DNA of 57,997 nt, filler included, from Nitrospirota bacterium (GCA_016180645.1; 3 parts of 3 records of this genome joined end to end with filler, not necessarily neighbours in it); one strand, 5' to 3'. Positions 3,531-57,461 are shown, counted from the whole stretch's first letter. Numbers and translations: made by a program. Notes: generated by a model not told the origin, from the sequence alone.

Positions 3531-3532
3531 CT

Positions 3533-18128: not shown

Positions 18129-18606
18129 GCTGCTCATCGCGTTCGGTATTTTTCTGGGTGCGTGCTCTTTTGGCGCGCTCACTCCGGAGAAAGTCTCGAA
18201 GCGCCTCAAGCACGGCTCGCTTGTGGCGGATCGGAGTCGGGTCTGCATGTTGCAGGATACGTACCAGGCCCAGAGCGTCCTCCCAATACCGTACAACGGG
18301 AAGACGTACTACGGCTGATGCGCGGGCTGCGTTGCCCGGTTCGGGCAAGATCCTGAGAAATTCTCGAAATCAACCGACCCCATCTCAGGGGCAAATGTGG
18401 ACAAGGCCCTCGCCTTCGCCTACCAGCGCGACGGAAGGGTTTTCTATTTCGAAACACTCGAAAACATCCTGGGGTTTGACCGTGATCCAAACGCACTCGG
18501 GCGTGTGCCGGTCACCCAGGCAATTCCGACCCCCAGGATGGGGGAAGTGCCGTCGGAAGGCAGGAGCCTGGAACGGCCAATGAATATGCAAGGAGGAACG
18601 CCATGA
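18112..18606 (+). CDS. YHS/TRASH-like exported protein, candidate selenoprotein (Sec69, UCxxC)
   Basis: SD AGGAGG and ATG 18112; VCM...GKTYYG-TGA(18316)-CAGC...DPISGANVDKA...YFE. Joins track ORFs 17974..18318 and 18397..18606 in one frame; ATGA overlap with the next gene. Confidence 0.8.
18332..18348 (+). promoter_or_regulatory. Putative bacterial SECIS hairpin
   Basis: TTGCCCG-GTT-CGGGCAA; loop G is 21 nt after the TGA. Confidence 0.7.
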
Positions 18607-18992
18607 ATAACAAGAAACTTCCCACCTCACCCCTCACCCCTCTCGCCTCTCGATGCAGAGGTATTATCGAACCCATTTCAGCCATTGCCGTGGCAGGGAT
18701 GGTCGTCATGATGGGCGGCATGATGGCTTTCATGGTGTGGGGCATGCCCAAGATGATGGGCATGATGCACGGCGGGCATGATGAAAAATCGCATGAGGAA
18801 GCGACGGAACATGGCGCCCACGCCACAAAGGCCGTCGATCCGGTGTGTGGCATGGAAATGAAGATCGCGGAGGACACGCCGAGAACCACCCACGAAGGCA
18901 AGACCTACTACTTCTGCTCAGGGGAAGACCTCAAGAAGTTCCTCGACGAGCCGGAGAAGTACGCGAAGCCCGGCGATCACGAGCGCAAGTAG
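18603..18992 (+). CDS. Membrane-anchored Met/His-rich YHS-domain protein
   Basis: Met-rich TM segment, His-rich linker, DPVCGM...KTYYFCS. Confidence 0.8.
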   Translation: MNNKKLPTSPLTPLASRCRGIIEPISAIAVAGMVVMMGGMMAFMVWGMPKMMGMMHGGHDEKSHEEATEHGAHATKAVDPVCGMEMKIAEDTPRTTHEGKTYYFCSGEDLKKFLDEPEKYAKPGDHERK

Positions 18993-19068
18993 GGCGATCA
19001 GGAGTCTCTTCCGTCCCTCCTACTCCGGATCAAAGTCCGGGGCAGGCTCCAGCAGAAATCCAGTTTGG

Positions 19069-19468
19069 ATGCCCGCTTTCGCGGGCATGACGATCCTCTT
19101 GGGCCTGTTCATAGCCGCCGCCGATGCACGTGCCTTCGTTCCCGAGGATGGCTTCCACCCCGGCTCCAAGATGGAGATGTGGAATCTCCACGGCCATCTG
19201 TTCACCGACGTTGTAAAGAAGCATGGGTATCGCGGACGTGTGGAAGAGTCCCCGGTCGGGCCGGATGTATCCGCGGCGGCTCCAGATCCGCATACCAGAG
19301 GCCGGCATGGAATGGGAACTGACTCCCGCATTTGACGATCAGGAGTTCTCCATGATGATGAACATGATGGCGTTCTGGACGGGGACGGGATCGGTTCAAG
19401 GAAGCACGGGAGGCGTTTCCGCCACCGGTCGCTACTGCAGCATGCTGCAAGGATACGGGAAGGAGTGA
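19069..19468 (+). pseudogene. Internally deleted and frameshifted AttH/CrtC-like (lipocalin-like) gene remnant
   Basis: EDGFHPGSKMEMWNLHGHL (N-terminal motif) in one frame; WKSPRSGRMYP...LTPAFDDQE...FWTG...LQGY (C-terminal motif) in another. The middle is absent. Confidence 0.55.
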
Positions 19469-19489
19469 GCCGGCCGGGTCACCCCATGT

Positions 19490-19518
19490 TTGACGGGAAA
19501 GTCGTCAAATGTTATGAT
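19490..19518 (+). promoter_or_regulatory. Putative sigma70 promoter
   Basis: TTGACG-N17-TATGAT with extended -10 TG, upstream of 19533. Confidence 0.55.
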
Positions 19519-19532
19519 ATCTGACGGAGAAT

Positions 19533-20699: not shown

Positions 20700-20739
20700 C
20701 AGTTGGCGAGGAACGCAGGCTGCGGATGAAACCGGCGGC

Positions 20740-21821: not shown

Positions 21822-21900
21822 GTGTTTCGTCGCATAGCCTCTTGTTGACATTGCCTAAGCTCGACTTTTGCCATTTTTTGAAAGGTTTATGTTGGTCATG

Positions 21901-22066: not shown

Positions 22067-22721
22067 TGTCCTTCAAGATGCGAATGGTCGTTTCGAGGGC
22101 CAGCCCAGCGCGCTGGGCAAGATCCTGCCGCCGGATCGGGGGGAGCGGTACGGGGAGGTTGTCGAGTCTGGGTGTATGGCCCCTCACCGCCACCGCCAGG
22201 ATCTCCGCCACGCGACGGTAGGAGCCGTGGTAGGCCATCGTCAGGGCGATTTCCTCCGCCTGGCCGACCTGCTCGGCCAGCTGTCGAATCAGCCGCATCA
22301 TGAGGGTCGGCTGTCGTTTCAGGAGGTCGAAGAAATATTCCCTGTCCAGGAAGGTGACCACGGAGAGCTCCGTGGCCTCCACCGTGGCGGAGAAGGGTTC
22401 ATCCAGCAGCAGAGAGCGGTAGCCGACCAGCGTTCCGGCGCGGCCCAGGCGGACGGCCAGTTGGTGCCCGGATTCGTCCGTCTTGCACACCTTGGCCTGC
22501 CCGCTGCAAAGAAGGAAGACGCCGTGGGGGCGCACCCCTTCGTGGGCGATGACTTGGTTCTTTTTGTATCGGTTGGCGATCAATCGCTCCTCGATCGTCG
22601 CCCTCTCGGAGGGATCAACCCCGGAAAAATAGCAGTGAGAATTGACGAGGCACTCGCCGCAACCGCAAGTGGCGCGGGTACGCGCCGCCGATAGTTTAAG
22701 CCTGCTCGACGCGGCGGCCAA
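22067..22721 (-). CDS. Crp/Fnr family regulator with N-terminal Cys cluster (3' truncated by the gap)
   Basis: CGCGEC...HC, cNMP-binding domain, RQDLAQRAGLALETTIR HTH. Confidence 0.88.
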
Positions 22722-23756
22722 TCAACCTCCTAGGAGATGCATGGGAGTTTGGACCCGGTGGCCCGGAGGCGGCACGGCCGCGGCGGGTCGGCGATCATCC
22801 CCTTTGAGCCATTCGATGCATCCTGCCGGCTTGCGCGAAACGATGTCGCGGATCAGCGACTCCAGATCGTCGTCCGACCCGCCGTTCCGGAGGACGGCCC
22901 TGAGGTCGTTGGATCGGTCGCGGGCGTAGAGGCAACTGACGAGTCGCCCGTCCGACGTGAGCCGCAACCGGTTGCAGGTGTTGCAGAAGGGGCGCGTGAC
23001 GGAGGGGATAATGCCGATCCGCCCGGCCCAGCCCGCAGGGAGGTATTCGCGGGCCGGGCCGTCCGATACCGGCGGATCTGTTGGTTCGAGTGCCACCGAT
23101 GTGGCGAGTCTTTGGATCACCTCGTCGAACGCGACGACGCGCGACGGGTTCCAAAGGCCCGACCCATCGAAGGGCATGAACTCGATGAACCGGACGACGT
23201 AGGGATCATGTTCGGCGAGACGCGCGATGGATTCGATCTCATCGTCGTTCACGCCGCGAATCAGGACGCAGTTGATCTTGACGCGCAGGCCGACTTCCGC
23301 GGCGCTCGCGATGGAGTGGAGCACCCGCGCGACGGCGTCCACCCCCGTGATGAGCATGAACTTCTCGCGTTTGAGCGAATCCAGGCTCACGTTCACGGTG
23401 GATACGCCGGACTCCTTGAGTTCCTGCGCGTGGCGCGCCAGACCGAATCCGTTCGTGGTCAAGGCGATCCCGCCGATGCCGGGAATGGCATGCAATCGTT
23501 TCACCAGATCGGGGAGGTCGTTCCGGAGGAGGGGTTCGCCGCCCGTCAGCCGGATGCGATCAATCCCCATCCCGGCCAACAGCCGCACGAGGCGCTCGAT
23601 CTCCTCGAAGGACAGAAGGTCGGAGCGTTGCACCCAGCCCCCTTCGGGCGAGCAGGGCAGGCAGTACATGCAGCGCATGTTGCACCGGTCCGTCACCGAC
23701 AGCCGGAGCTTGGTCACCGGACGCCCGAGCGAATCCTGAAGAGGACGCAGAGTCAT
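22722..23756 (-). CDS. moaA: GTP 3',8-cyclase MoaA
   Basis: LRLSVTDRCNMRCMYC, RFIEFMP, FCNTCNRLRLT and C-terminal GG. Confidence 0.95.
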   Translation of the reverse strand: MTLRPLQDSLGRPVTKLRLSVTDRCNMRCMYCLPCSPEGGWVQRSDLLSFEEIERLVRLLAGMGIDRIRLTGGEPLLRNDLPDLVKRLHAIPGIGGIALTTNGFGLARHAQELKESGVSTVNVSLDSLKREKFMLITGVDAVARVLHSIASAAEVGLRVKINCVLIRGVNDDEIESIARLAEHDPYVVRFIEFMPFDGSGLWNPSRVVAFDEVIQRLATSVALEPTDPPVSDGPAREYLPAGWAGRIGIIPSVTRPFCNTCNRLRLTSDGRLVSCLYARDRSNDLRAVLRNGGSDDDLESLIRDIVSRKPAGCIEWLKGDDRRPAAAVPPPGHRVQTPMHLLGG

Positions 23757-23762
23757 CCTTCG

Positions 23763-23918
23763 TCACACCTCCGGACGATGGTCCTTGAGCGCCTTTCTGA
23801 ATTCGATGAGTGATTTGCCAAGGCCGCGGAACAGTTCCGGGAGACGCCCTGCGCCGAATACGAGCACGACGATCAGGGCGATCACCACGATCTCCCGCCA
23901 TCCGATGTTGCCGAGCAT
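23763..23918 (-). CDS. tatA: Twin-arginine translocase TatA/E subunit
   Basis: Hand translation MLGNIGWREIVVIALIVVLVFGAGRLPELFRGLGKSLIEFRKALKDHRPEV (51 aa; too short for the ORF track). Confidence 0.9.
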   Translation of the reverse strand: MLGNIGWREIVVIALIVVLVFGAGRLPELFRGLGKSLIEFRKALKDHRPEV

Positions 23919-24056
23919 GATTTACATCCTTTCGCGTCTTGAACGGCCGGACATCCGCCGGCAGGTTGCAGTCTGTCAGCTCCAGAACATAGAAATATGA
24001 CCGATATCAGGTTTCTCATTCTTGATATTTCCCCTCCGCCAGAATAGGATGCGCTC

Positions 24057-25025
24057 ATGGTTGAGCAGCCCCAATTCATGATCGAGTCAGATCTGACCCG
24101 AGGGCTCTATTCGGAGGCGGGGAAAGTCTCCCAGAGCACGGAACCTATTCTGATCATCGGTGAGACGGGAACCGGCAAGGAGGTTCTCGCCCGCCACATT
24201 CACAACCGATCGACCCGATCCTCCGGCCCGTTCATTCCCCTCAATTGCGCGGCGATGCCGGAGACGCTCGTCGAGAGCGAGCTGTTCGGTTACCGGAAAG
24301 GCGCCTTCACGGATGCCAAGTCCGACAAGTCCGGCGTGATCGAAATGGCCAACGGCGGGACGCTGTTTCTGGACGAAATTGCGGAGCTGCCGGGCCCCGC
24401 ACAGGCCAAGTTCCTCCGCGTGCTCGAAACGGGCGAGTTCATGCCCTTGGGTACCGTTCAGTTCCGTCGCAGCGATTTCCGCCTGGTCTGCGCCACCAAC
24501 AAGAACCTTCAGAAGGATCGGCGGGATTTCCGGGATGATCTATTCTATCGGGTCAGCACGTTCACGCTTTTCCTCCCGCCTCTCCGGGATCGGAAGGACG
24601 AGATCCCCCTCTTTGTAAACAGTTTTCTGAACCGGAATGGGCGCGAGGCGGCGTCCATTTCTACCCAGGCCATGGAGCTCCTTCTCTGCTACACGTGGCC
24701 GGGGAATATCCGTGAGCTCCGCAATGTGATGCACCACGCCTTGGCGCTGGCGGAGAATGAAATCCGTCCCGAGCACCTGCCGAAATGGCTCCTGGATTTC
24801 TGCCCGCGAAGGGACGTAATGGAGAGCGACGACGTAGGCGCCAAAATCGCATGTTTCGAGCGGTGCCTGATGCAGTCGTATCTGGACCGCGGCGCCAGCG
24901 TGGGCGAGTTGAGCAAGGTAATCGGCGTGCCGCAGAGCACTGTCTATCGCAAATTGAAGAAGGGCGGGGTGCTCACCCCCAAGAAGGCCAAATCGGCCCT
25001 CAAGGCCAGGCCGGAGAAATCGTGA
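24057..25025 (+). CDS. Sigma54-interacting transcriptional activator lacking an N-terminal sensor domain
   Basis: GETGTGKE, ESELFG, GAFTDA, LFLDEI, WPGNIRELRN and Fis-type HTH. Confidence 0.9.
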   Translation: MVEQPQFMIESDLTRGLYSEAGKVSQSTEPILIIGETGTGKEVLARHIHNRSTRSSGPFIPLNCAAMPETLVESELFGYRKGAFTDAKSDKSGVIEMANGGTLFLDEIAELPGPAQAKFLRVLETGEFMPLGTVQFRRSDFRLVCATNKNLQKDRRDFRDDLFYRVSTFTLFLPPLRDRKDEIPLFVNSFLNRNGREAASISTQAMELLLCYTWPGNIRELRNVMHHALALAENEIRPEHLPKWLLDFCPRRDVMESDDVGAKIACFERCLMQSYLDRGASVGELSKVIGVPQSTVYRKLKKGGVLTPKKAKSALKARPEKS

Positions 25026-25483
25026 TGCTCTGGATAAAATTTGTTCATGTGGCCGCGGTGATCCTCTGGTTCGGATCGGCGGCGGCGGATGTCATTCTGG
25101 AATTGGTCCTCAAGAAGACCGTCTCCCGGGACGGCCAACTCGCGCTCATTGGACTGCACGCGAAGGTCGATCAAATATTGGAGGCCCCGGCGATCGTCCT
25201 CACCCTTTTCACGGGAATATTCCTTCTTTTCTTTGGAGGTGCGCAATGGCCGGGCGTGCTGGTGGTCAAAATACTGTGCGCGCTGGCGGCGGCCGGAGCC
25301 AATCTCTATTGCGTGAAAGTGGTGGTGGAGCGGGATCGCTGGGCGCGCGGGGCGGCCCCGGACGTGTCGCTCCTGCAGAGTCCGGAAGGGAAGAGTCTGG
25401 CGCTTCGAATTTTCGCAACGGGGTCGGGAATTCCTTTCGCCGCCGTCGCCCTGGCGATTGCCGTCGTCTACCTGTCGAAGTAG
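25025..25483 (+). CDS. Four-TM membrane protein (CopD/DUF2269-like)
   Basis: MLWIKFVHVAAVILWFG and further hydrophobic segments; start overlaps the upstream stop. Confidence 0.6.
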   Translation: MLWIKFVHVAAVILWFGSAAADVILELVLKKTVSRDGQLALIGLHAKVDQILEAPAIVLTLFTGIFLLFFGGAQWPGVLVVKILCALAAAGANLYCVKVVVERDRWARGAAPDVSLLQSPEGKSLALRIFATGSGIPFAAVALAIAVVYLSK

Positions 25484-25484
25484 G

Positions 25485-25931
25485 TCAGTTCCGGACGGCT
25501 TTCCGCTCTCTGAGCAACTTCAATCCCGGGCAGTGGGCCCGTGTGCACGTGCACTCCACCCCCAGGATCTGAGCGAGAAAATCGCGCAACTGGAGAAGCC
25601 TCTTCCGATCCTGCTTTGCGTTGATGTGTTCCACGCGGGACACAATATCGAGCGTGACCTCGGGAAGAGTCTGGTTCGAGATGAATGCGATAGTCACGGG
25701 GCAGAGGTGCAGCGCATCGGTGATCTTGGAGAGAGTGGTGAAGGTGACATTGGCCCGGCCGCGTTCCACGCGGTTGTAGTACCGGACGTCAAGTTTGGAC
25801 ATGCGGGCGATCTGAGCCTGCGTTTTTCTCACGCCCAGACGAGCCTGCCGGAGCAGGTTCCCCATCTGAATCAGAGCTTGCTTGTCTCCCATTAAACCAA
25901 GTTGATGATCGCTCAAAGTGATATAGATCAC
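25485..25931 (-). CDS. XRE-family HTH regulator
   Basis: LRQARLGVRKTQAQIARMSKLDVRYYNRVERGRANVT; start uncertain. Confidence 0.7.
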   Translation of the reverse strand: MIYITLSDHQLGLMGDKQALIQMGNLLRQARLGVRKTQAQIARMSKLDVRYYNRVERGRANVTFTTLSKITDALHLCPVTIAFISNQTLPEVTLDIVSRVEHINAKQDRKRLLQLRDFLAQILGVECTCTRAHCPGLKLLRERKAVRN

Positions 25932-25932
25932 A
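25917..25932. promoter_or_regulatory. Possible CRP/FNR-type binding site
   Basis: AGTGA-TATAGA-TCACA between divergent genes. Confidence 0.35.
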
Positions 25933-26019
25933 ATTGGGGTAAAAGGCGATAATCACTGGGTAAATCACCCTATGCGTGTATTGACGGGGCACGCCGGATG
26001 GGAGATTTGTTGGGTCACG

Positions 26020-26817
26020 ATGAGCAAGATCAAGCCCCGCAGAGTGACCCCACGAGAGAAAACAAAGAGGTCGAGGAAGCCTCGCCCGGGGCGTTGGTCT
26101 GAATCTCTTCAAGCGAAGGCCAACCGTCTCGAGTCCGTCCTGTTCATGGCAGTGGGGGTCGTTCACGATTTCAATTCTGTCCTCACGGGGGTTCTGGCCT
26201 CCTTGGAAGGGGCAAAGTCGGGCATCGAGCGCGTCCGCGCCGGGGCCATCGCGGACGCAGAACGGTCGGCTTGGAAGGCGCGGGAGCTTACAGCCGAACT
26301 CATGGCCGTCGCCGTGGACCGGCCGGAAAAACGCGAGCCCCTGGACCTTGTCGAATTGGTCCGGCGTTCAATGAAATTTGCCCTGCGGGGTGGGTGCGTA
26401 CGCTGTGTGGAACGATTCGGCGACAACATCCGGCCCGTCGAAGGAAGTCGGAATCAGATCGGCCGGGTCATCCACAACCTGGCCCTGAACGCGCGGCAGG
26501 CGATGCCAAAGGGGGGAACCGTTCGTGTCGAGATCGTGAACGCGGCGCTGAGGAAGAGCGTTGGGAGGGGTCTTTCCAGGGGCGACTACGTGAGAATCAC
26601 GCTGACCGACGAAGGACCGGGTATCCGGCCGGAGAGCCTGGGAAGAATATTCGAGCCTTTCTTCACGACGAAGGAGGGCGGGAGTGGGTTGGGCCTGGCC
26701 GTCGCCGCCGCCATCGTCAAGGCGCACGGGGGCGCCATCACGGCCGGCTCGGGATCGGGGGCCACCTTCAGCGTGTATCTCCCTGCACGACCACCGGCTT
26801 TGAAGCCGGCGCCCTGA
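26020..26817 (+). CDS. Histidine kinase core (HisKA + HATPase) without sensor or receiver domain
   Basis: GVVHDFNSVL H-box, NLALNARQAM, DEGPGI and FEPFFTTK..GSGLGL. Confidence 0.8.
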   Translation: MSKIKPRRVTPREKTKRSRKPRPGRWSESLQAKANRLESVLFMAVGVVHDFNSVLTGVLASLEGAKSGIERVRAGAIADAERSAWKARELTAELMAVAVDRPEKREPLDLVELVRRSMKFALRGGCVRCVERFGDNIRPVEGSRNQIGRVIHNLALNARQAMPKGGTVRVEIVNAALRKSVGRGLSRGDYVRITLTDEGPGIRPESLGRIFEPFFTTKEGGSGLGLAVAAAIVKAHGGAITAGSGSGATFSVYLPARPPALKPAP

Positions 26818-26842
26818 AGGGTCTCCGCGCCCCCGGGTGGGC

Positions 26843-26899
26843 TTGACAGGGATCCCGTCCGATACTACAGTGTCTATAGTTTCGATACTTAGAAACTAT
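26843..26899 (+). promoter_or_regulatory. Sigma70 promoter plus palindromic operator upstream of the ArsR-family gene
   Basis: TTGACA-N17-TACAGT, then ATAGTTTC-N8-GAAACTAT (26876-26899) overlapping the ATG. Confidence 0.7.
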
Positions 26900-27233
26900 G
26901 GGAAAGACCGAAAACGACCGGAGGATCTTTGAGCTGCACGCGCAGATCTGCAAAGTGCTGTCGAATCCGAGGCGGCTGGAAATCATTCACCACCTGCGGG
27001 GGGCCGAAGGAACGGTGAAGCAACTCGTCAACGCCACCGGGTACCCCAAGGCGAACTTGTCGCAGCATCTGAGCGTCATGCGCGCGGCGGGACTCCTCCG
27101 ATCGAGGCGGAATGGACGGGAAATCCACTACCGCCTGGCTTTTCCGAAGATGTTGAAGGCGTACGATCTGCTTCGCGAAATCCTCTTCGAACGGATGCGG
27201 GAGCAGTCAAGAATGTTGGGAGGCAAACCATGA
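26898..27233 (+). CDS. ArsR/SmtB family repressor
   Basis: ICKVLSNPRRLEI...NLSQHLSVMR...RRNGREIHYRL. Confidence 0.92.
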   Translation: MGKTENDRRIFELHAQICKVLSNPRRLEIIHHLRGAEGTVKQLVNATGYPKANLSQHLSVMRAAGLLRSRRNGREIHYRLAFPKMLKAYDLLREILFERMREQSRMLGGKP

Positions 27234-28942
27234 GAGTGCTGGACGAAAGCCGGGGAGGCGTGAAGTCGGGCGAACGGCTGGATTTGAAGGGCGCGGGGCT
27301 GCCCTTGGAAATCCGACGGGCGGCCCTGATCGTCTTCTGGAAGGGTCGCTGACAGACCTGCCGGCAGGAGGCTCCTGCCATACGAGGCGTGGCCGAGAAG
27401 TTCGGCCCGAAGGGACTTGATGTGGTCTACGTGGGCGCCATGGAGACCGCAGAAGATTGTGAGCGGTGGAAAAAAGAATACGGCCTGCCCTTCCCCGTGA
27501 TTCCGGATCCCGAGGGCCAACTGTTCAGGCGGTTCGCCAACGGTTGGGTTCCTTTCAATCTGCTGGTGGGTCCGGACGGTCGAGTTGTGTTCTGCGAAAA
27601 TGAGTTCGATGAAGCGGGCTACTCCCGCGAGATTGCGCGATTGTGCGGGGAACCGGCGCGCCCCCCATCCGCTCCTTCCCCCACAAGGGGGGAAGGGATG
27701 GTAGCCGCACCCTTCATGGGTGCGTCTTCAGACGCAGGCATTAAGCCTGCGCCTACCCCCTCCCCTTCAAAGGGTGGGGGTAACCACTCTAGCCCGCAAA
27801 CCATCGTCATTCTTGGCGGAGGGACAGGAGGCATCGTGGCCGCCCATCACTTGCGCAAGAGACTGCCGCGCGAGCACCGGATCGTCCTGATCGACCGTTC
27901 GGAGTCGCATCTCTTTGCCCCCTCGCTCCTGTGGATGATGGTGGGCCTGCGTCGCGCCGAACAAATCCGACGGCCGCTGATGCGTCTGAAATCGAAGGGC
28001 ATCGAATACCATCATGGAAGTGTGAATGGGATCGATACCGAGAATCGAATGATCCATGCCGATGGAGCGGATATCCCTTACGACCACCTCGTGATTGCCC
28101 TCGGTGCGGAGACGGCGCCGGAGTCCATCCCGCACTTTGAGGATAAGGCGCACAATCTCTACTCCGTGGAAGGCTGCACCCGATTGCACGAGGCTCTGGA
28201 AAGCTTTCAAGGTGGAGCGATCACCGTGCTGATCCCGTCCATGCCGTTCAAATGCCCGGCCGCACCCTACGAGGCGGCCTTTCTGGTGGAAGCATTCGCT
28301 CGGAGGAGGGGAATCCGCGACAAGACCGACATCCATCTCCTGACCCCTGAGCACCAGCCGATGCCGGTGGCTGGGAAACTGCTGGGTGGGGCCATTGTGG
28401 AGATGCTGCGAAGCCGCGGGATTCACTACCATCCGTTATTCACGTTCAAAGAGCTGAACGGTGCGGAGGAACGGGTGGTGGCCGCGGACGGTCAGGCGGT
28501 GCGGGCGGGACTCCTGATCGGAATCCCGCCGCACCGTGCGCCGGCCGTGGTCCGCGAGGCGGGGTTGGCGGGAGTTTCCGGATGGATTCACGTGGATCCC
28601 CACACGATGAAGACGCAGGTGGACGGTGTGTACGCGATCGGCGACGTGGCAGCCGTCAAGCTCCCCAACGGAAAAATGCTGCCCAAGTCCGGCGTGTTCG
28701 CGCATTTCGAGGCGGAGGTGGTTGCAAAGAACATCGCCGCGGAGGTGGGCGGAGAGGGCGGGAACGCGGCGTTTGATGGCAAGGGTTATTGCTGGGTGGA
28801 AACGGGCGATGGGAGAGCCGGCTTCGCGAGTGGAAACTTCTTCGCGGAGCCGGAGCCGCGCATCACGATGCATAGACCAGGCCGGATGTGGCGATGGGGG
28901 AAGCTTGCGTTCGAGCAGTGGTGGCTCCGGCATTGGTTCTGA
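27230..28942 (+). CDS. Thioredoxin/peroxiredoxin-fold (UxxC, Sec41) domain fused to an SQR-like FAD-dependent oxidoreductase; candidate selenoprotein, 570 aa
   Basis: ATG 27230 overlaps the ArsR stop (ATGA, SD GGAGG). LIVFWKGR-TGA(27350)-QTCRQEAP is in frame with track ORF 27389..28942. Trx fold (LPFPVIPDP, WVPFNLLVGPDGRV) then ILGGGTGG, PFKCPAAPYE, YAIGD, LPKSG and GKGYCWVETG. Confidence 0.85.
27363..27379 (+). promoter_or_regulatory. Putative bacterial SECIS hairpin
   Basis: GGCAGGA-GGC-TCCTGCC; loop G is 18 nt after the TGA. Confidence 0.72.
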
Positions 28943-29185
28943 AGCGAGGCCGGTGATCAAGCACGCGGGCTGAAGCCCGCGGCTACCGGCAACGCTTGGT
29001 GGAGCGGTAGGCGCAGGCTTCATGCCTGCGTTGTCTCGACTTCGCGCCGCTCATTTGACGGATGTGTCTGATCCACATTCACCCGTTCTCCCACCGCGGA
29101 GTTGCTTGACGCTCGGACAGGGGCCATGTAGCGTCGCTGCCGGGAGGAAGTGTCGGGCTCAGCTCGACGAGAAAGGAGTGCGTCC

Positions 29186-30175
29186 ATGCTTCGAACTCAA
29201 CTGACCGATCTGCTCGGGATTCGTCATCCCGTTATCCAAGGGGGACTCCAATGGTTGGCCACCGCTGAACTGGCGTCGGCGGTCTCTAATGCCGGCGGAC
29301 TGGGCACGATCTGCGCCCTGTCGTTCGGCTCGGCCGACGAATTTCGCAGCGAACTGAAGCGGATGAAGGACAGGACCGACAAGCCGTTCTGCGTGAATCT
29401 CTCGATGCTTCCCATGATGGGCGACAATGAAGTCTACGGGATGTACATCGACATCCTGATCGAAGAGGGCGTAAAGGTGGTGGAGACGTCCGGCCGGAGT
29501 CCCGAAGCGTTTGTGCCGCAATTACATGGCGCGGGGATCAAGATCATCCACAAAGTTCCAGCGGTGCGGTTTGCGAAGAAAGCGGAGGGTGTGGGGGCGG
29601 ACGCGGTGACGCTCGTCGGATTCGAGTGCGGAGGCCATCCGGGACTGGACGACGTGACCAGCCTCATCCTGATTCAGAAAGCGGCGAAGACCCTCAAAGT
29701 CCCTGTCATCGCGGCGGGAGGCTACACGGATGGTCGGGGGCTCGTTGCGGCCCTCGCTCTGGGGGCGAGCGGGGTGCTGATGGGCACGCGCTTCGTGGCC
29801 ACGAAGGAATGTATCGTTCATCCCAACTTCAAGGAGTGGATGCTGAAGGCGCAAGAGACGGACACGATGATCGTGGAGCGCAGCATTCGCAATCCCGCGC
29901 GCGTGCGGCGCAACAAGGCCGCAGAGGACGTGCTGGAGCTTGAAAAGCAGGGCGCCACGCTGGCGGATCTCCTGCCACACATTGCCGGCAAGATGGGTTT
30001 GGAAGCCTATCGCTCGGGCGATCTGGACAAGGGCGTCATCGCCTGCGGTCAGGCCGTGGGGTTGGTGGACGACGTGCCGACGGTGAAGGAATTGATGGAC
30101 CGGATCATTGGCGATGCGGAAAACACGATGGACGGCCTCCGTTCCTTCCGCGTCAACGGAGCCGGGGGGCGGTAG
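29186..30175 (+). CDS. Nitronate monooxygenase / FabK-like flavin oxidoreductase
   Basis: PVIQGG, AVSNAGGLG, GFECGGH, IAAGG and GVLMGTRF motifs; SD AAGGAG. Confidence 0.9.
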   Translation: MLRTQLTDLLGIRHPVIQGGLQWLATAELASAVSNAGGLGTICALSFGSADEFRSELKRMKDRTDKPFCVNLSMLPMMGDNEVYGMYIDILIEEGVKVVETSGRSPEAFVPQLHGAGIKIIHKVPAVRFAKKAEGVGADAVTLVGFECGGHPGLDDVTSLILIQKAAKTLKVPVIAAGGYTDGRGLVAALALGASGVLMGTRFVATKECIVHPNFKEWMLKAQETDTMIVERSIRNPARVRRNKAAEDVLELEKQGATLADLLPHIAGKMGLEAYRSGDLDKGVIACGQAVGLVDDVPTVKELMDRIIGDAENTMDGLRSFRVNGAGGR

Positions 30176-30285
30176 TGGAAGGTGTCAGGACGGTAGCCGC
30201 AGCCTTTATGGCTGCGTCCAGAACGCGGGCTGAAGCCCGCGCCTACCGGAACTGACAGCCGGACGCTGATGGCTGAGAGCGGCTA

Positions 30286-31182
30286 GTGTACCAAGGCCCT
30301 GCCTGGGAAACAGTCAAGTCGGCGATCGTCGATCTGACGGACCGCTGCAACCTCCGCTGCAAGCATTGCTTCTACTACCGGGAGCAGCATGACAGCGAGG
30401 AGTTGCCCGCCGATGAACTCCTGGCCGGCCTGAAAGTCCTCCGGGACCGTCACCATGTGCAGGCCATGGCATGGTGTGGAGGCGAGCCCCTTCTGCGAAC
30501 AGACGTGCTGGAGCAGGGGGCGGCGCTCTTCCCCATGAATTGGATCTTTTCGAACGGCACGCTGCCTATCCCGGACGTTTCAAACGCGATGCAGTTCGTG
30601 TCGGTGGAAGGTCCGAAGGAGATCCACGACAAGATCCGCGGCCGCGGCACGTATGACAAGATCATGGCCACCGTCGCGAATCGTCCCGGTGAAAAGCCGA
30701 TCGTTTTTCTGCCGACGATTCACAAACTCAACGCCCCGTTCCTGGAGCAAACGATGAAGGAACTCTCGAAAATCACCAACGCATTCCTCGGAGTCGAATT
30801 CTTCACTCCGCTCAAGGAGTACCGGCCGATCAAGGGCTATCCCCACGTGGAGATCCAGAAGAAGGATTTGGACCTGACATGGGAGGAACGCGACCGGATC
30901 ATCGATCGTCTGTTCGCCCTCAAGAAGTCCTATCCGGGATTCATCGTTGTGCGCGATCGCGTTCTGGAGTTGATGCGCTCGGAGTACGCGCCCACCTGCA
31001 TCGAGAAGTGCAACATGCCGAACCGGTGCCTCACGCTCGACGTGAAACTCAATCGCAAGCAGCCGTGCGTACTCGGCAAGGACGTGGACTGCTCCAAGTG
31101 CGGCTGCATCTTCCCCTACGAGCAGCAGGCCCGAGCAGAGGAGAAGGCATCGGGCAAAGATACCCGCCCCCTGTTTTTCTGA
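30286..31182 (+). CDS. Radical SAM protein with C-terminal Cys cluster
   Basis: CNLRCKHC, GGEP, HDKIRG; C-terminal PCVLG..DCSKCGC. Confidence 0.88.
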   Translation: MYQGPAWETVKSAIVDLTDRCNLRCKHCFYYREQHDSEELPADELLAGLKVLRDRHHVQAMAWCGGEPLLRTDVLEQGAALFPMNWIFSNGTLPIPDVSNAMQFVSVEGPKEIHDKIRGRGTYDKIMATVANRPGEKPIVFLPTIHKLNAPFLEQTMKELSKITNAFLGVEFFTPLKEYRPIKGYPHVEIQKKDLDLTWEERDRIIDRLFALKKSYPGFIVVRDRVLELMRSEYAPTCIEKCNMPNRCLTLDVKLNRKQPCVLGKDVDCSKCGCIFPYEQQARAEEKASGKDTRPLFF

Positions 31183-31312
31183 AGACATGAGAAATTGCCA
31201 CGCGGCGATGGCAAATCGCCACGCAGCGGTCCCAAGTGTGGATTGAAATAGTCCACGTGTAACTTAGCGTGATCCCGCCGAAACCACGCTTTTTCAAACT
31301 CCTGGCTTGTCT

Positions 31313-31327
31313 TGGCGCAAATGTTGC
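31313..31327 (+). promoter_or_regulatory. Possible sigma54 promoter
   Basis: TGGCGCAAATGTTGC (GG-N10-GC), 39 nt upstream of ATG 31366. A direct repeat AAAT(T/C)GCCACGC(G/A)GCG lies at about 31192-31228. Confidence 0.45.
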
Positions 31328-31365
31328 GCATCCCTCGGCATGGCTTTGACCCAAAGGAGGCAATC

Positions 31366-33105: not shown

Positions 33106-33258
33106 GGAATGTGGAGATGTGAGACGGGGTCATGTCGTCATCTCGGGCGCTGCGCCAGCCGAAACGTGCCGAGCGTGAGGAGGATGCAGAGGAGCCAGCA
33201 GGGGAAGGTGTACGGGAGGCGCATGCCCTCGCCGAGGGAGGATACTCAGGCGGGCGCC

Positions 33259-33654
33259 TCAGTCGACTTCGGTGATGTCGGGGTCGTGCATGTCGCGGCC
33301 GACGCGGACCTCAGTGTCGCCATTCCTGTTGAGCACGCTGATGTCCCACATCTGCATGGTCCCAGCGCCGATCAGCATTTGCTGGCGCAGGTCGGGAGAG
33401 ACAAGCGCATACGCCTCGATCATCTTGCCCTCCAGCCTCAGCACGAGGTAGGTTGTGCCGGCGACATGGACCTCTCCCCCCTGACCGGCTGTTTTCAGGG
33501 ATCGGGTCTCAGGAGAGTGGAGGACGGGGGTATCCTTCGGGAGCACGTCCAGTCGAATGATCGTATGGAATGACCCGGTATCGATGACGGCCTGCACATC
33601 CACGGACTTGGATTCGCTGGTCGTGATTCTGATCTCGCGAGTAGGCTTGCTCAC
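33259..33654 (-). CDS. Retropepsin-like (clan AA) aspartyl protease
   Basis: AVIDTGS and MLIGAG motifs. Confidence 0.75.
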   Translation of the reverse strand: MSKPTREIRITTSESKSVDVQAVIDTGSFHTIIRLDVLPKDTPVLHSPETRSLKTAGQGGEVHVAGTTYLVLRLEGKMIEAYALVSPDLRQQMLIGAGTMQMWDISVLNRNGDTEVRVGRDMHDPDITEVD

Positions 33655-33696
33655 GGAGTTATTCTAGACTCAGGACAATGCGAAGTAAACGCGGGG

Positions 33697-40923: not shown

Positions 40924-40937
40924 ATCTCTGCCTCCCA

Positions 40938-42062: not shown

Positions 42063-42218
42063 GATATCCGTCCGTGGTCCCGCCACCCCCATTCGTTACG
42101 CCCATGGACGGGCCGCACCCGAAGCTGCTCAGAGGCGCCCGGAAGGCATCTCAATGCTCTGCGCGGGGTGCGCCGTGGTCCTCCTGTCAATCAGAGACCG
42201 CAGAACCTCCGTCGATCC

Positions 42219-46523: not shown

Positions 46524-46550
46524 CCTCGCCTCTATTTGGAGGGGTTCTTC

Positions 46551-46700
46551 GAGCCTCTAACAGAATGCCGATTCGTAGGGGAGCATTTTCAGATGCTCCC
46601 TCTTGTCGGGAGGGTCTGAAGACCCTCCCCTACGCATTCTGTTGCTCCTTCTTGTCGGGAGGGTCTGAAGACCCTCCCCTACGCATTCTGTTAGACGCAC
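46551..46700. mobile_element. MITE-like palindromic element with internal duplication
   Basis: Reverse-complement homolog of 54450-54550; ends GAGCCTCTAACAGAATG / CATTCTGTTAGACGCAC; abuts the TAA stop at 46701. Confidence 0.75.
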
Positions 46701-47270
46701 TTATTCCTCTACGATGAGGGTTCCCTTGAGCTTTGGGTGGATCGTGCACCACTGGTTCTGGCAGGAGAACCCGTAGCGCCCCGGGGTGTCGGCGCTGAAT
46801 TCCACGGTTCCGGACGGCTTTGCGGCCGACAGCTCCGTCTCGGGCAGACTCAGCCCTGAGAACGCGATGATATGCACGTTGTCTCCTGTCGTATCGCTAT
46901 TGACGAACTTGATACGCACGCGCGAGCCTCTTTTCACGGTCAAGGTGAAGCCTTTGGGCACGCCGCCAAAACCGTTTGACGTGATCTCTACCGTGATATC
47001 CGAAGAGGTCGGGCCCGCCGCGGCGGCGGACGGCGCCGGTTGACCCGCGGCAGGTTGTTCGCCTGTCGGGGCGGTGGGAGCGCTGGGCTGGGCCGCCTGA
47101 ACGTCCGGCCCGCTTCCGGCGATTTGATGGCCTTCGTGTTCGCTCGAATCCACGGCTTGGAAGTCGGCCACGTCGATGCGGGCCAGCGGGGCATCCTCCA
47201 ATCCGCACGCCGGGGCCGCGGTAAGAGCCGCGACCGCCAAGGCATACCCGTATCGGCAAGGTGTACACAT
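46701..47270 (-). CDS. Cupredoxin-domain lipoprotein
   Basis: APAC lipobox-like, VKRGSRVRIKFVNSD..NVH, FSADTPGRYGFSCQNQWCTIHPKLKGTLIVE. Confidence 0.82.
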   Translation of the reverse strand: MCTPCRYGYALAVAALTAAPACGLEDAPLARIDVADFQAVDSSEHEGHQIAGSGPDVQAAQPSAPTAPTGEQPAAGQPAPSAAAAGPTSSDITVEITSNGFGGVPKGFTLTVKRGSRVRIKFVNSDTTGDNVHIIAFSGLSLPETELSAAKPSGTVEFSADTPGRYGFSCQNQWCTIHPKLKGTLIVEE

Positions 47271-47287
47271 CACGGCGCTCCTCCCCG

Positions 47288-53046: not shown

Positions 53047-53080
53047 CGCCCGCCCTCCTTCTGCCACCCACCCTTCGATC

Positions 53081-53848
53081 ATGGGTGATTGGAGCGAGTT
53101 TCCGGCAACGCTGAGAGTGCAGCTCAAACTCTATCCCTATCGGTCAGTCAAGGATGCCCCTTGGTCACCCCTCCGCAAGCCCCTTCGCGAATGCACCGTG
53201 GCCCTCATTTCGTCGGCGGGCTTCGTTCGTCCCGATCAAACCCCGTTCGACAAATCCGCCCTCGGCGGCGACTCGTCGTTTCGAGAATTGCCTGCCGATA
53301 CGGATTTGGCCGGCTTGAAGGACACCCACCGCAGCAAGAGCTTCGATCACTCTGGGTATCGCCGGGATCCGAATCTCGCCTTCCCCCTGGACCGGCTCAA
53401 GGAACTGGTCGCTGAGGGGTTTATCGGCGGCATCGTGGATACGCATTACAGTTTCATGGGATCTCTCACAGCGGTCGGGAAGTTCGTGAAGGCAACGGCG
53501 CCGGAAATCGCCCGTCGCCTCGTTGCGCAGCATGCCGATGCAGCTTTGCTTGTACCGGTGTGACCGCTTTGCAATCAGGCCGTGGGCCTGATGCAGGGGG
53601 AAATCGAGCGGGCGGGCATCCCCACCGTTTCCATCAGTCTCCTCAAGGACATCACGCTCAAGGTGAAGCCACCCCGCGCCCTTTGGGTGCCCTTCAATCA
53701 CGGCTACCCGCTGGGTGAACCGGACAACCCCGCGATCCAGAAGGAGGTGCTCCAGGCGGCTCTTTCCCTCCTGACGGAGGCACAAACCGCTCCCGTGATT
53801 CTCCGTGATTTCGTATCCCAACCAGGGGCCCAACCCACCCAGAGGTAA
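53081..53848 (+). CDS. GrdB/PrdB-related (glycine/proline reductase selenoprotein B-like) candidate selenoprotein, Sec161 UxxC
   Basis: VALISSAG, GDSSFR, DPNLAFPLDRLKEL, SFMG, ALLVPV-TGA(53561)-PLCNQAVGL..IERAGIPTV...PFNHGYPLG. Joins ORFs 53081..53563 and 53582..53848 in frame. Confidence 0.9.
53574..53592 (+). promoter_or_regulatory. Putative bacterial SECIS hairpin
   Basis: ATCAGGCC-GTG-GGCCTGAT; loop G is 19 nt after the TGA. Confidence 0.78.
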
Positions 53849-53921
53849 ACCTCATGTCCCGCAACCCGGCTCCTCGCGATGCCCCACGCAGGGCCCTGCC
53901 ACGGATGGGTCGCGTAGGTCC

Positions 53922-54449
53922 TTGACGCTCCCGAGCCACGTTTTCTGGACGTGCTTTCTTTTCCGCGGAAGGAAAGAGAAGTGGTGGGCCATGGCGGGAT
54001 CGATCCTTCCTGATGCCCCTTACGTCATCCCCCTGCTGGCGGGCGGCGTCACCGGCGCGTTGGATGTCTGGGCGCACTGGTGGAACCATCCCGTCACGAG
54101 AATCCTCCACTCCTATCCCATCGTGGGCGCGACCTTGATCCTCTCCCTCCTGCTGAAGCGTCGTCGAACGGCATTTCTTCTCGGAGGAATCCTCCTTCAC
54201 GCCTTCTTCGACATGTGGACCCATGTGAGCGACGCGTATCCCGTGTTTTATCCGTTCAGCGAATTTAGGTTCCCGACCCCGTTCTCATATTGGGAAAAGG
54301 CGCACCACGCGCCCGCGCTGAGGATCGTCAATGGCCTGCTGGTGGCCGCCGCGGCGCTTTACTTGTGGAGGGAGAGGCGATCGCGCCGCGCTGAGTCCGG
54401 GCCTGCCTGTCAGTCACCGAGCCAGTCTTCTGGTAACGGCGTCTCTTAA
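53922..54449 (+). CDS. Membrane-bound metal-dependent hydrolase-like protein
   Basis: TLPSH, GSILPD, LHS, LLHAFFDMWTH..DA and PFSYWE motifs; TTG start inferred. Confidence 0.7.
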   Translation: MTLPSHVFWTCFLFRGRKEKWWAMAGSILPDAPYVIPLLAGGVTGALDVWAHWWNHPVTRILHSYPIVGATLILSLLLKRRRTAFLLGGILLHAFFDMWTHVSDAYPVFYPFSEFRFPTPFSYWEKAHHAPALRIVNGLLVAAAALYLWRERRSRRAESGPACQSPSQSSGNGVS

Positions 54450-54550
54450 GTGCGTCCAACAGAATGTGTAGGGGAGGGTCTTCAGACCCTCCCGACAAGA
54501 GGGAGCATCTGAAGATGCTCCCCTACGAATCGGCATCCTGTTCGAGGCTC
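54450..54550. mobile_element. MITE-like palindromic element with TAA target duplication
   Basis: TAA|GTGCGTCCAACAGAATG...CATCCTGTTCGAGGCTC|TAA; the left TAA is the upstream gene's stop. Confidence 0.78.
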
Positions 54551-54981
54551 TAAGTTTCGGATCGCGCCGAGCTGAAACGTGGTCACCTCTCAGTGACTCG
54601 AATCTGACGGATCGTTACATCCACGGCGAAGATTCGCGCCGAGTAACGGTTTGTCGCCGCGCGCCACGAACGAACGAAGCCATGAAAACACATATCGCGG
54701 CTGTTGGCGCCCAGGGCCGTTCGTATCATTGTGAAAAGGAAGCCGCCCATCTCAGGAATTAGGAGGTATTTATGAAACGCTCTTTACGCAATCGAGTGTC
54801 TTTGCTCTTCGCGGGAGCATTCTTCCTCTGGGCGGCGCAAGCCGGCGCGGCCCGGGCCGGCGACGTCCGATCATCCTGTAGAACTTTTGGCACGATTGGA
54901 GAGGTGGGCCTGAAAATGTAGTCACGGATTTCCTGGGCTGGGTCGTTGGATTTCGGATACTCTTCCGGAAGGAGGAAGACG

Positions 54982-55371
54982 ATGGACGACGCAGCGCAGA
55001 CGGTGAAAGGGAACGGGGAATCGGCTCACGGGCTGATCCAGAAGGTCAAGAGGGCGACGCGGAGGCGGTTTGGGGCGGAGGAGAAGATTCGGATTCTCCT
55101 GGAGGGGATGAAGCGGGAGGTTTCGACCTCGGAACTTTGCCGGAAGGAGGGGATTCATCCGCACGCCTATTATTCGTGGCTGAAGGACTTCATGGAGGCT
55201 GGGAAGTCGAGGCTGAGGGGGGATTTGAAGCGGAGCGCGACCGAGGGGGAGGTGGAGAGCCTGCGGCGGGAGAACGAGAGGCTGAAGGTGATTTTGGCGG
55301 ACCCGGTTCTGGAGAACACCCTTTTGAAAAAAAGTCTGATCGGGTCGGAGATCGATGGACTTACGCGATGA
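54982..55371 (+). CDS. IS3-family transposase OrfA
   Basis: RRRFGAEEKIRILLEG...ELCRKEGIH..YYSWLKDF...LRRENERLK. Confidence 0.88.
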   Translation: MDDAAQTVKGNGESAHGLIQKVKRATRRRFGAEEKIRILLEGMKREVSTSELCRKEGIHPHAYYSWLKDFMEAGKSRLRGDLKRSATEGEVESLRRENERLKVILADPVLENTLLKKSLIGSEIDGLTR

Positions 55372-56363
55372 CGGCTGCCGAGAAGGCGAGCCTGATCGAC
55401 CGGGTCGAGGGGAGCCGGTGCAAGAGGCGGCTTCTCCGGGCGCTCGGGATACCCGACTCGACGTACTACCACTGGGTGCGGCTTTACCGGGAAGGGGGAC
55501 CGAACGCATTGGATAAGCTTTTGCCCGTGGCCCGGACGATCTGGAACCGGATCACGCCGAAGGAGGAGCTGAGAGTCCTGGAGATCGCGCGGGACCTCCC
55601 GGAGCTCTCTCCCCGGCTTCTGTCCGTAAAGATCACGGATGAAGAGGAGTTCGCCATCTCGGAGTCGAAGGTCTACGAGATCCTGAAGAAGAACGATCTC
55701 ATTCGGCCCCGGCCCTTGCCGGAGCTTCCGGCGAGGTCGGAGTGGCCCCACAAGACGAGGAGGCCCAACGAGATCTGGCAGATCGACGCGACGACGTTCT
55801 TCGTGGCGGGATGGGGGTACTACAAGCTCATCCCCGTTCTTGACGACTACTCCCGGAAGATCCTGGCGTGGGACCTCCTGCCGGACGAATCGGCCGGTTC
55901 GATCTCGAACGCGGTGGAGCAGGCGGTGGAGGCGACGGGAATACCGGAGCGGCCGGAGCACGAGAAGCCGACGCTTCTGTCCGACAACGGATCGGGCTTC
56001 ATCTCGTGGCTCCTGGCGGACTACCTCAAGGCCCACGGCATCCGGCACATCTTCGGCAAGCCCTATCATCCGCAGACGCAGGGAAAAATCGAGCGGTTCA
56101 ATCGGCGGATCAAGGAGGGCGAGTGTCTGATCGTGTATCTCAGCCCCGGAGACCTCAAGGAGGCCCTCAAGCTGGCCATCGTGCGCTACAATGCCACACC
56201 GCACGAGGCGCTGAAAAACGTGGCGCCGAACGACCTGTACGCCGGCCGCCAGGAGGAGATCCTCAGGCGCCGGGAGGAGAAAAAGAAAGCGACCTACGCC
56301 CGTCGCAAGGAGTATAATCGGGGCGTGAACAACGGTCCGGCTCAGCCCGGAAAGTGTGACTAA
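55368..56363 (+). CDS. IS3-family transposase OrfB (rve integrase core)
   Basis: PNEIWQID, VLDDYSR, LLSDNG and HPQTQGKIERFNR (DDE). Confidence 0.9.
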   Translation: MTAAEKASLIDRVEGSRCKRRLLRALGIPDSTYYHWVRLYREGGPNALDKLLPVARTIWNRITPKEELRVLEIARDLPELSPRLLSVKITDEEEFAISESKVYEILKKNDLIRPRPLPELPARSEWPHKTRRPNEIWQIDATTFFVAGWGYYKLIPVLDDYSRKILAWDLLPDESAGSISNAVEQAVEATGIPERPEHEKPTLLSDNGSGFISWLLADYLKAHGIRHIFGKPYHPQTQGKIERFNRRIKEGECLIVYLSPGDLKEALKLAIVRYNATPHEALKNVAPNDLYAGRQEEILRRREEKKKATYARRKEYNRGVNNGPAQPGKCD

Positions 56364-56843
56364 GAAAAATGGTCACTTCTCCAAAAAGGTCAAAAGACGT
56401 ACCCATGCAACCCATGCGCCGGGAAAAAGATCAAGTACATGAGGGACAAGTCGGCCCGTCAAAAGGACCCGAAGAAGCTGATCGACATCGGGGCAAGGCT
56501 CTGGACCGATCGCAACCTCGGAAAGACCGGCGTTTCGTGCGATACCTGTCACGCGAACTACAAGACTTTCAAGAGCACGGTGACGCAATCCTTCTCCCAT
56601 TTCGTGGAAATGGCGGACGACATCGTCACGCTCGATCAGATGATCAACGTGTGCATGGAGAATCCGATGGGCACGGAACCGCTCGCGTGGAATTCGACGG
56701 AACTGAGCGCGCTCAACGCCTACTACACCGAATGGATCAAGGGCTACAAGGCGCCCGCCAACCCGTGCGGCATGAAGAATCCGTGCAACCCCTGCGGGAA
56801 GCGAAAGTAGAACACAAGAGAGTCATTACCCTCGGGTAACGCC

Positions 56844-57461
56844 ATGAGCGTCACGGTACGGCTCTATTCTGATTTCGTCTGACCCTTCTGCTTCATTGCG
56901 GAGCAAAGCAGCCTGGTCAGGCTGCAACGGGAATTTGAAATCGAAGTGGACTGGAGGGGCTTTGAGCTTCATCCGGAGATTCCGCTCGGCGGCATGCCCA
57001 TCGAGCGCTATTTCCCCGGCCACAAGTTGGAAGGGGTGCGAAAATACCTTCATGACTTTGCGCGAAGTTTCGGTGTTGAAGACATGAAGGCCCCGGGACA
57101 TCTCCCGAATACGAGGCGCATCCTGGCCGTTTCCGAGATGGCGCGGGATCTCGGCAAGCTGGAGCCCTTCCGGGAACGGGCGATGAACGCCTACTGGCGT
57201 GAGGGGAGGAACGTGGAGGATATGGAGGTGATACGCATAGTGGCGGCTGATTCCGGGCTGGACGCCGAGGCCGCGGCCCAGGCCGCTTCCGATCCTTCCT
57301 ACCTTGCGCGGGTGGAGGCGATGCGTGGAGAAGCGAGCGAGGCGGGAGTCACCGGCATCCCCACCTTCTTTTTTGACGACCGGATGGTCGTCGGCTGTCA
57401 GCCCTATGACGTGCTGACCAAGGTGGCTGTACACTCGGGCGCCAAGCGGCGTACGCTATGA
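56844..57461 (+). CDS. DsbA/FrnE-family thiol oxidoreductase, candidate selenoprotein (Sec13, UxxC)
   Basis: MSVTVRLYSDFV-TGA(56880)-PFCFIAE...WRGFELHP...GVTGIPTFFF...GCQP; in frame with track ORF 56946..57461. Confidence 0.88.
56888..56911 (+). promoter_or_regulatory. Putative bacterial SECIS hairpin
   Basis: CTGCT-TCA-TTGC-GGA-GCAA-AGCAG; loop G is 18 nt after the TGA. Confidence 0.62.

Follow-up and report, generated by a model that had tools for sequence, protein, structure and literature searches.

Comparative sequence analysis indicates that four genes in a stretch of DNA from the Nitrospirota bacterium GCA_016180645.1, an uncultured groundwater organism, very probably each contain a TGA codon that is read as selenocysteine (Sec) in the way usual for bacteria. 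The stretch, hereafter called the window, comprises 57,997 nucleotides in three contigs (1-21966, 22067-35996 and 36097-57997), between which runs of N have been inserted, and has a G+C content of 61%. The four genes, in the order in which they occur, encode a YHS-like lipoprotein from the distal end of a Cus-type metal efflux operon (site 1), a fusion of a redoxin to a sulfide:quinone reductase (SQR)-like flavoprotein (site 2), a stand-alone PrdB/GrdB-like protein (site 3), and a DsbA/FrnE-like protein (site 4). Sec coding directed by hairpins of the SelB type is well supported for sites 2, 3, and 4 and probable for site 1.

Results

In-frame TGA codons occupy cysteine positions in four genes

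The original prediction had placed in-frame TGA codons at 18316, 27350, 53561, and 56880, distributed over all three contigs, and the reading frames confirm this: each of the four lies in a reading frame opened by an upstream start codon, and each contig holds one or two of them. As had also been proposed, every one of these codons takes the place of the first Cys in a (U)CxxC or UxxC motif, the motifs being read here as YYG-U-CAGC, U-QT-C, U-PL-C, and U-PF-C. All four TGAs align with a Cys of homologous proteins, with conserved sequence on both flanks, and a family match covers or borders the TGA in each of the four read-through products when these are scanned against Pfam and curated models.

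Standard gene callers treat these TGAs as stops, and the four codons could in principle be just that, each separating two genes or marking a dead gene; in a variant of this idea, the organism would read every TGA as an amino acid. The variant is at odds with the use of TGA as terminator by 20 of the 41 Pfam-supported genes in the window, from which it follows that the genetic code is standard. Ordinary stops are already contradicted for three of the genes by the comparative data presented below, in which the same TGA recurs across phyla in three families, both flanks are conserved, and hairpins covary. We assign this pair of explanations next to no probability, and Sec remains the preferred reading of the four codons.

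It had been further claimed that gene callers split all four genes. This is directly visible for two of them, the YHS-like and PrdB-like genes, whose own fragments are present in protein collections; for the fusion and DsbA-like genes a split is suggested by relatives that are called only from a start located after the TGA.

Hairpins with a G-first loop follow the TGA codons

Hairpin positions are given here with the U of UGA counted as 0. The loops beginning with G that the original prediction had located at +21, +18, +19, and +18 are found at the same places, those figures having been counted from the A of TGA; they correspond to positions 23, 20, 21, and 20. Sites 1 to 3 have perfect stems of 7, 7, and 8 bp, closed by the triloops GUU, GGC, and GUG, which start at 23, 20, and 21, respectively. 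At site 4, a stem of six pairs is followed by a 3-nt bulge, three more pairs, and a GGA loop at 20.

Stems of this kind are infrequent in the window. A G-first loop at positions 19-24 closed by at least seven contiguous pairs was found at 22 of 1720 TGA triplets (1.3%; all frames, both strands), and none of 20 ordinary TGA stops of Pfam-supported genes has more than four contiguous pairs closing such a loop. Covariation was seen for the hairpins of two families, redoxin-SQR and PrdB-like. This covariation, and the retention of the TGA in relatives, lead us to judge as right the mechanism originally put forward, namely that of a bacterial selenocysteine insertion sequence (SECIS), in which a hairpin lies 3' of the UGA and its loop starts with G.

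The PrdB-like gene

The strongest comparative evidence was obtained for site 3, which has the following features.

53081..53848, + strand: stand-alone PrdB/GrdB-like gene with predicted Sec161 (PV-U-PLC); Pfam GRDB 43.8 bits against a cut-off of 22
53561..53563, + strand: predicted Sec-UGA, codon 161 from ATG53081
53574..53592 (extendable to 53564-53600), + strand: core of the putative SECIS hairpin, 8 bp, GUG loop at 21, −23.2 kcal/mol

Eighty genomic loci homologous to this gene, spanning Acidobacteriota, Gemmatimonadota, Myxococcota, Verrucomicrobiota, Desulfobacterales, Binatia, and others, were compared at the codon in question. TGA is present in 79 of them and TGC in one, and the TGC locus has no hairpin. 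Across 78 distinct sequences, four of the eight hairpin pairs change on both sides, as illustrated by one pair that is G-C in 38 sequences and A-U in 34, while the G and U of the loop are invariant; the covariation score was reached by none of 500 shuffles. At the protein level, 1826 relatives were found; of 120 that were listed, 27 are full length and 93 terminate precisely at the position of the TGA, the 160-residue fragment of the window gene itself being one of the 93. Cys occupies the site in 11 of 12 full-length relatives that were aligned.

The protein resembles PrdB-type selenoproteins (PF07355; TIGR04483) in the place of its UxxC motif, its length of about 250 residues, and its match to Pfam GRDB. 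It differs from them in falling below the equivalog cut-offs, with 143.4 bits against the 300 required by TIGR04483 and 60.6 bits against the 65.45 required by TIGR01918, and in its surroundings, as a domain scan of the window found neither PrdA nor any other reductase gene adjoining it. For these two reasons, we describe it as a stand-alone PrdB-like homologue and not as a demonstrated D-proline reductase. In ocean metagenomes, DsbA 1 and the Prx-like families are counted among the common selenoproteins, and proline reductase PrdB is one of the most abundant families (PMC2398784); proline reductase PrdB is also recorded for the Olavius delta-1 symbiont (PMC1976440).

The gene lies within a block bordered by two arrays of tandem 49-nt repeats (46547-46703 and 54447-54554), which contain an inverted pair of 98 nt with 95% complementarity, 7.8 kb apart. 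Two regulator genes and a gene for an extracytoplasmic function (ECF) sigma factor are found in the same block.

The redoxin-SQR fusion gene

The features of site 2 are as follows.

27230..28942, + strand: redoxin-SQR fusion gene; N-terminal TlpA/Prx-like redoxin with predicted Sec41 (U-QT-C), linker, sulfide:quinone-reductase-like flavoprotein
27350..27352, + strand: predicted Sec-UGA of the redoxin domain, codon 41 from ATG27230
27363..27379, + strand: putative SECIS hairpin, 7 bp, GGC loop at 20, −12.2 kcal/mol

Both halves of the fusion are recognised by domain models, with 46.7 bits for AhpC-TSA (cut-off 26), 42.2 for Redoxin (cut-off 26.6), and 90 for Pyr_redox_2. The N-terminal half is closest to thiol-disulfide oxidoreductases of the ResA type, ResA structures matching residues 30-121, and it contains the redoxin UxxC motif as U-Q-T-C at residues 41-44. 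The other half is a pyridine-nucleotide-disulfide oxidoreductase of the sulfide-dehydrogenase type whose best solved relatives are SQRs (98-108 bits). Cys342 and Cys521 align with the Cys residues of the K-C-x-x-A-P and C-terminal motifs of human SQOR, and we take these counterparts to be the catalytic pair of SQRs.

An initial scan of genome contigs with the fusion protein alone detected no relative. In a metagenome scan, all 36 loci that cover the site have TGA there and no Cys form of the fusion was seen among them; the other 44 loci of the same scan match the flavoprotein part only or end before the site. Each of the 32 distinct sequences forms the seven core pairs of the hairpin and has G as its first loop nucleotide, and one pair is compensatory, having changed from A-U to G-C in 6 of the 32. 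Six proteins in the collection are fused relatives, and in all six the annotated start lies past the TGA.

The redoxin domain is like those of the catalogued Prx-like selenoprotein families (PF00578, PF08534) in having a UxxC motif, and differs from them in being fused to an SQR-type flavoprotein. The flavoprotein in turn shares with the SQR superfamily the FAD-binding fold and both active-site Cys residues, as aligned to solved SQRs. A selenoprotein subtype of Type III SQR has been catalogued (NF049943), in which Sec lies in the flavoprotein itself (HxxU), whereas in the fusion it is placed in the redoxin; the flavoprotein part has no TGA and scores 249.4 bits against the NF049943 cut-off of 525. 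A full-text literature search returned no description of a redoxin-SQR fusion selenoprotein, although selenoproteome supplements or a groundwater study of 44,000 bins may list it. The product is predicted to be cytoplasmic, and its Sec-x-x-Cys domain would accept or resolve a persulfide formed on the flavoprotein.

Directly upstream of the fusion gene lies another gene.

26898..27233, + strand: ArsR-family regulator gene (Pfam HTH_5), overlapping the start of the fusion gene by ATGA

An ArsR gene occupies this position in 3 of 22 related loci, in two of these three fused to a rhodanese domain, and with so few occurrences it was rejected as a fixed partner of the fusion. A 26-nt element resembling repetitive extragenic palindromes (REP) is present in four copies (27732-27757, 29006-29031, 12265-12289, and 17196-17220), one of which lies in frame within the fusion gene and thus accounts for a linker insertion of about 25 residues relative to other fusion members.

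The DsbA-like gene

The features of site 4 are as follows.

56844..57461, + strand: DsbA/FrnE-like gene with predicted Sec13 (FV-U-PFC); Pfam DSBA 111.3 bits against a cut-off of 25.6, residues 4-192
56880..56882, + strand: predicted Sec-UGA, codon 13 from ATG56844, giving U-P-F-C at residues 13-16
56888..56911, + strand: candidate SECIS A, the hairpin of the original prediction, GGA loop at 20, −7.0 kcal/mol
56908..56925, + strand: candidate SECIS B, 7 bp, GGUC loop at 35, −12.6 kcal/mol

Matches to this protein (E <= 1e-25) were found in 50 of 401 genomes of a sample from one phylum, and 39 of the 50 contain one TGA. The active-site codon, read in 31 loci, is TGA in 22 and TGC or TGT in 9. 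No closer relatives than 38% identity were present in the sampled genomes. Candidate A shares the spacing of the hairpins at the other three sites; candidate B, unlike A, is part of the minimum-energy fold. Either of them may serve site 4, as the relatives, with their identity of no more than 38%, have hairpins of other forms.

The protein has no signal peptide and presumably resembles the cytoplasmic members of the FrnE type. It agrees with DsbA-like protein form 1 (PF01323, UxxC) in its DSBA domain, in having Sec first in U-P-F-C, and in the mixture of Sec and Cys among its relatives; it differs in its identity of at most 38% to proteins of the sampled genomes and in having two candidate SECIS hairpins.

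Immediately upstream of the gene, 55137-56839 contains an insertion sequence (IS)-type integrase gene (rve) and an open reading frame (ORF) of 156 codons with a Cys-rich C-terminus. At its other end, the ordinary TGA stop at 57459 is followed by a hairpin of −25.7 to −27 kcal/mol (57459-57530).

The YHS-like lipoprotein gene

Site 1 is the weakest of the four Sec cases; that its TGA encodes Sec is nevertheless quite probable. It has the following features.

18112..18606, + strand: YHS-like lipoprotein gene, predicted Sec at codon 69, motif YYG-U-CAGC; Pfam YHS 43.5 bits against a cut-off of 30.3
18316..18318, + strand: predicted Sec-UGA, in frame, codon 69 from ATG18112
18332..18348, + strand: SECIS-like hairpin, 7 bp, GUU loop at 23, −10.3 kcal/mol, recognised by its fold

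An exhaustive search gave 967 relatives of this gene at E <= 1e-3, and a word-indexed search gave five. Among 42 aligned relatives, at least 90% have Cys at position 69, and conservation extends beyond the TGA. The 95 codons that follow the TGA are open, conserved at the protein level, and terminated by an ATGA that overlaps the start of the next gene. A relative of 73 residues (60% identity) starts two residues past the site, as the second part of a TGA-split gene would, and fragments of 68 and 69 residues from the window gene itself are in the protein library. One groundwater study provides four runs whose contigs show the same TGA with no variant, and two of these runs may be the source of this DNA.

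The N-terminus is a signal peptide ending in L-G-A-C, which resembles a lipobox and which we take to follow the lipobox rule. A first YHS-like half contains Cys45, Sec69, Cys70, and Cys73, and a second YHS-like half has no cysteines. These four residues would form a soft-metal site, and binding of soft metals in the periplasm is the likeliest role that the sequence suggests for the lipoprotein.

With the YHS domain-containing (seleno)protein model NF041384, the lipoprotein has in common a YHS-type domain in which Sec takes the place of Cys. It differs in its motif, which is G-U-C-x-x-C and not the catalogued GxU, in being a lipoprotein, in its second, Cys-less half, and in belonging to a Cus-type operon; no match to NF041384 was obtained even at E <= 1. 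The first report of YHS selenoproteins concerned the Olavius delta-1 symbiont (PMC1976440).

The genes surrounding site 1 are the following.

10967..16714, + strand: CusCBA-type RND metal efflux genes; Pfam OEP, HlyD_D23 with HMBD, ACR_tran 725 bits
17247..18128, + strand: YHS domain fused to an S-adenosylmethionine (SAM) methyltransferase, Cys form, from the domain scan
18603..18992, + strand: third YHS-domain gene, Cys form; Pfam YHS 47 bits, NF041384 weak at 16.9 against a cut-off of 70

The CusCBA-type genes, upstream of the YHS genes, encode an outer-membrane factor, a membrane-fusion protein with a heavy-metal-binding domain, and an AcrB-family pump. They are followed on the same strand by a small ORF, the YHS-methyltransferase gene, the YHS lipoprotein gene, and the third YHS gene. 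The lipoprotein gene overlaps the YHS-methyltransferase gene upstream and, by ATGA, the start of the gene downstream.

A segment at the 3' end of the lipoprotein gene (18526-18572) is shared with many contigs of the same metagenome runs, where it is marked by loose ends and spikes in depth. The segment resembles a small dispersed repeat giving the protein a C-terminal extension that its relatives lack.

Hairpin energies, cysteine forms, and the Sec machinery

Several results weigh against Sec at one or more of the sites and are brought together here. With an energy score that allows bulges, hairpins at 194 of 1722 TGAs (11%) reach −10 kcal/mol and those at 115 (6.7%) reach −12 kcal/mol; the latter value is also attained at 3 of the 20 ordinary stops, among them the DsbA-like gene's own stop at 57459. 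At site 4, the hairpin spaced like those of the other sites is weak, and a more stable candidate follows it downstream. Every full-length relative of the YHS lipoprotein that was seen is a Cys form, including the closest one (53% identity), and a Cys-form relative folds well in the same stretch too. Finally, none of selA, selB, selC, and selD is present within the 58-kb window, where Rfam at gathering score and ARAGORN found tRNA-Arg only and no tRNA-Sec.

By the energy score (−10.3, −12.2, −23.2, and −7.0 kcal/mol for sites 1 to 4, the last for the loop at 20), site 3 ranks fourth among the 1722 TGAs, and sites 1, 2, and 4 are not separated from ordinary TGAs; only the count of contiguous pairs separates them. 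Equally good hairpins behind ordinary stops, which would speak against the original prediction, therefore exist by energy and do not exist by contiguous stem (0 of 20), so that this comparison is partly discriminating. As hairpins of equivalent energy are common in DNA of 61% G+C, the hairpins alone cannot carry the claim of Sec coding.

This bears above all on site 1. The other three genes may use Sec while the TGA of the YHS gene arose by recent nonsense mutation of a Cys codon, leaving a young pseudogene in which the hairpin is fortuitous. The presence of Cys at the site in all full-length relatives seen, a hairpin recognised by fold without comparative support, and the 11% of window TGAs that have an equally stable G-first hairpin at the offset would all be explained in this way. 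Such a history fits poorly with 95 conserved open codons running into the ATGA overlap, with the occurrence of the same TGA in four runs, with the 60%-identical relative that is apparently split at the same place, and with a perfect 7-bp stem and G-first loop of a kind that 1.3% of TGAs have and that is absent from all 20 true stops. We regard a nonsense mutation as unlikely and retain Sec as the probable meaning of this codon.

As for the machinery, SelB above the curated cut-off and tRNA-Sec above the gathering score were both detected in all five other genomes with a TGA-form PrdB-like gene that were searched. A different decoding of UGA has been proposed for some anaerobes, in which a tRNA(Cys) resembling tRNA-Sec, with a UCA anticodon (selC*), would together with a second SelB read UGA plus hairpin as Cys. 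PMC5389517 reports selC* tRNA(Cys) genes, in some cases followed by a second selB, from Desulfobacterales, Syntrophobacterales, Thermodesulfovibrio, and contigs assigned to Nitrospirae. According to the same paper, all genomes bearing selC* also hold a complete Sec apparatus (PMC5389517), for which reason selC* would be an addition to Sec decoding and not a replacement of it. Nothing in the window speaks for a reading as Cys, which we consider very improbable; Sec is again the reading that we follow.

Four Sec genes in 58 kb represent a high local density, in a window that was singled out for these sites. The very Sec-rich organism with a hidden selenoproteome that the original prediction deduced from them goes beyond what a stretch of this length can show. 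The largest bacterial selenoproteomes reported comprise 57 and 63 genes, and those of isolates reach 46 (PMC12013277). No fifth Sec candidate with a Cys-type motif was found in the window among hairpin-bearing TGAs, nor among 364 TGAs with open flanks or by a codon-usage score on both sides of the TGA, in a search that was not exhaustive, 228 read-through frames having been left without a Pfam scan. The DsrE-like gene at 57547-57891 has no in-frame TGA.

Other features of the window

A run of genes on the − strand (36231-42092) suggests metalloid handling. It encodes a MerA-like FAD oxidoreductase (NF004991, 817 bits), a DedA/VTT membrane protein, a PHO4-type phosphate transporter, and an enzyme of 891 residues in which a radical SAM/SPASM part is fused to an ArsM-like methyltransferase. 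At 2406-5440, also on the − strand, two long ORFs with pyruvate:ferredoxin oxidoreductase domains (POR and POR_N; TPP_enzyme_C) share about 570 nt that are read in different frames, possibly owing to a frameshift or a mis-set start. A protein of 721 residues made up of RCC1 repeats is encoded on the same strand at 33697-35862 by tandem DNA repeats of 150 nt.

Discussion

In E. coli fdhF, the SECIS element is an in-frame hairpin just past the UGA, with the G at the start of its loop about 20 nt downstream. The hairpins of the window are alike in these respects and differ as short triloop hairpins, for which SelB binding is predicted. In the mechanism that we propose, a hairpin embedded in the reading frame, its apical loop lying about 20 nt past the UGA, would bind SelB carrying Sec-tRNA(Sec), and the ribosome would then insert Sec where relatives have their first redox or metal-binding Cys. 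We infer that this takes place in the source organism, and the chemistry suggested for each protein is to be read in the same way.

Four products would result. The first would be a periplasmic YHS-like lipoprotein whose gene lies in the terminal part of a Cus-type metal efflux operon, and the second a cytoplasmic redoxin-SQR fusion in which sulfane sulfur produced by the flavoprotein site would be accepted or resolved by the selenolate. The third would be a stand-alone PrdB-like protein and the fourth a thiol-disulfide oxidoreductase of the DsbA/FrnE type, predicted to be cytoplasmic. The roles in metal, sulfur, and thiol functions that the original prediction had envisaged fit the domains found in these proteins.

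PrdB-like, DsbA-like, Prx-like/redoxin, and YHS proteins all belong to selenoprotein superfamilies that are already catalogued. The PrdB-like and DsbA-like proteins are ordinary members of well-known families, and the fusion and the YHS lipoprotein are new members, or perhaps new variants, of known kinds. A Sec-containing redoxin fused to SQR and a YHS subfamily in a Cus-type operon appear to be undescribed, although supplements may list either. It is conceivable, if doubtful, that three stronger statements hold jointly: that the fusion represents an undescribed, obligately selenium-dependent family, that the YHS lipoprotein provides the first periplasmic Sec metal ligand of a Cus operon, and that the selenoproteome of the organism is close to the record sizes cited above.

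Little is added by the mechanism or by two of the families, which are textbook matter. Public protein sets give the four genes, two of them visibly and two presumably, as mis-called fragments, and the same applies to hundreds of relatives. The fusion and the YHS lipoprotein are the two items that may deserve a test at the bench. Sec in a lipoprotein of a metal efflux operon would, if true, link the use of selenium to resistance against copper, silver, or mercury. The TGA kept in every sampled relative of the fusion suggests that groundwater and soil bacteria need selenium for handling sulfide or persulfide, and the fusions may form a family with an obligate requirement for selenium, in which a selenolate takes sulfane sulfur off the active site of SQR.

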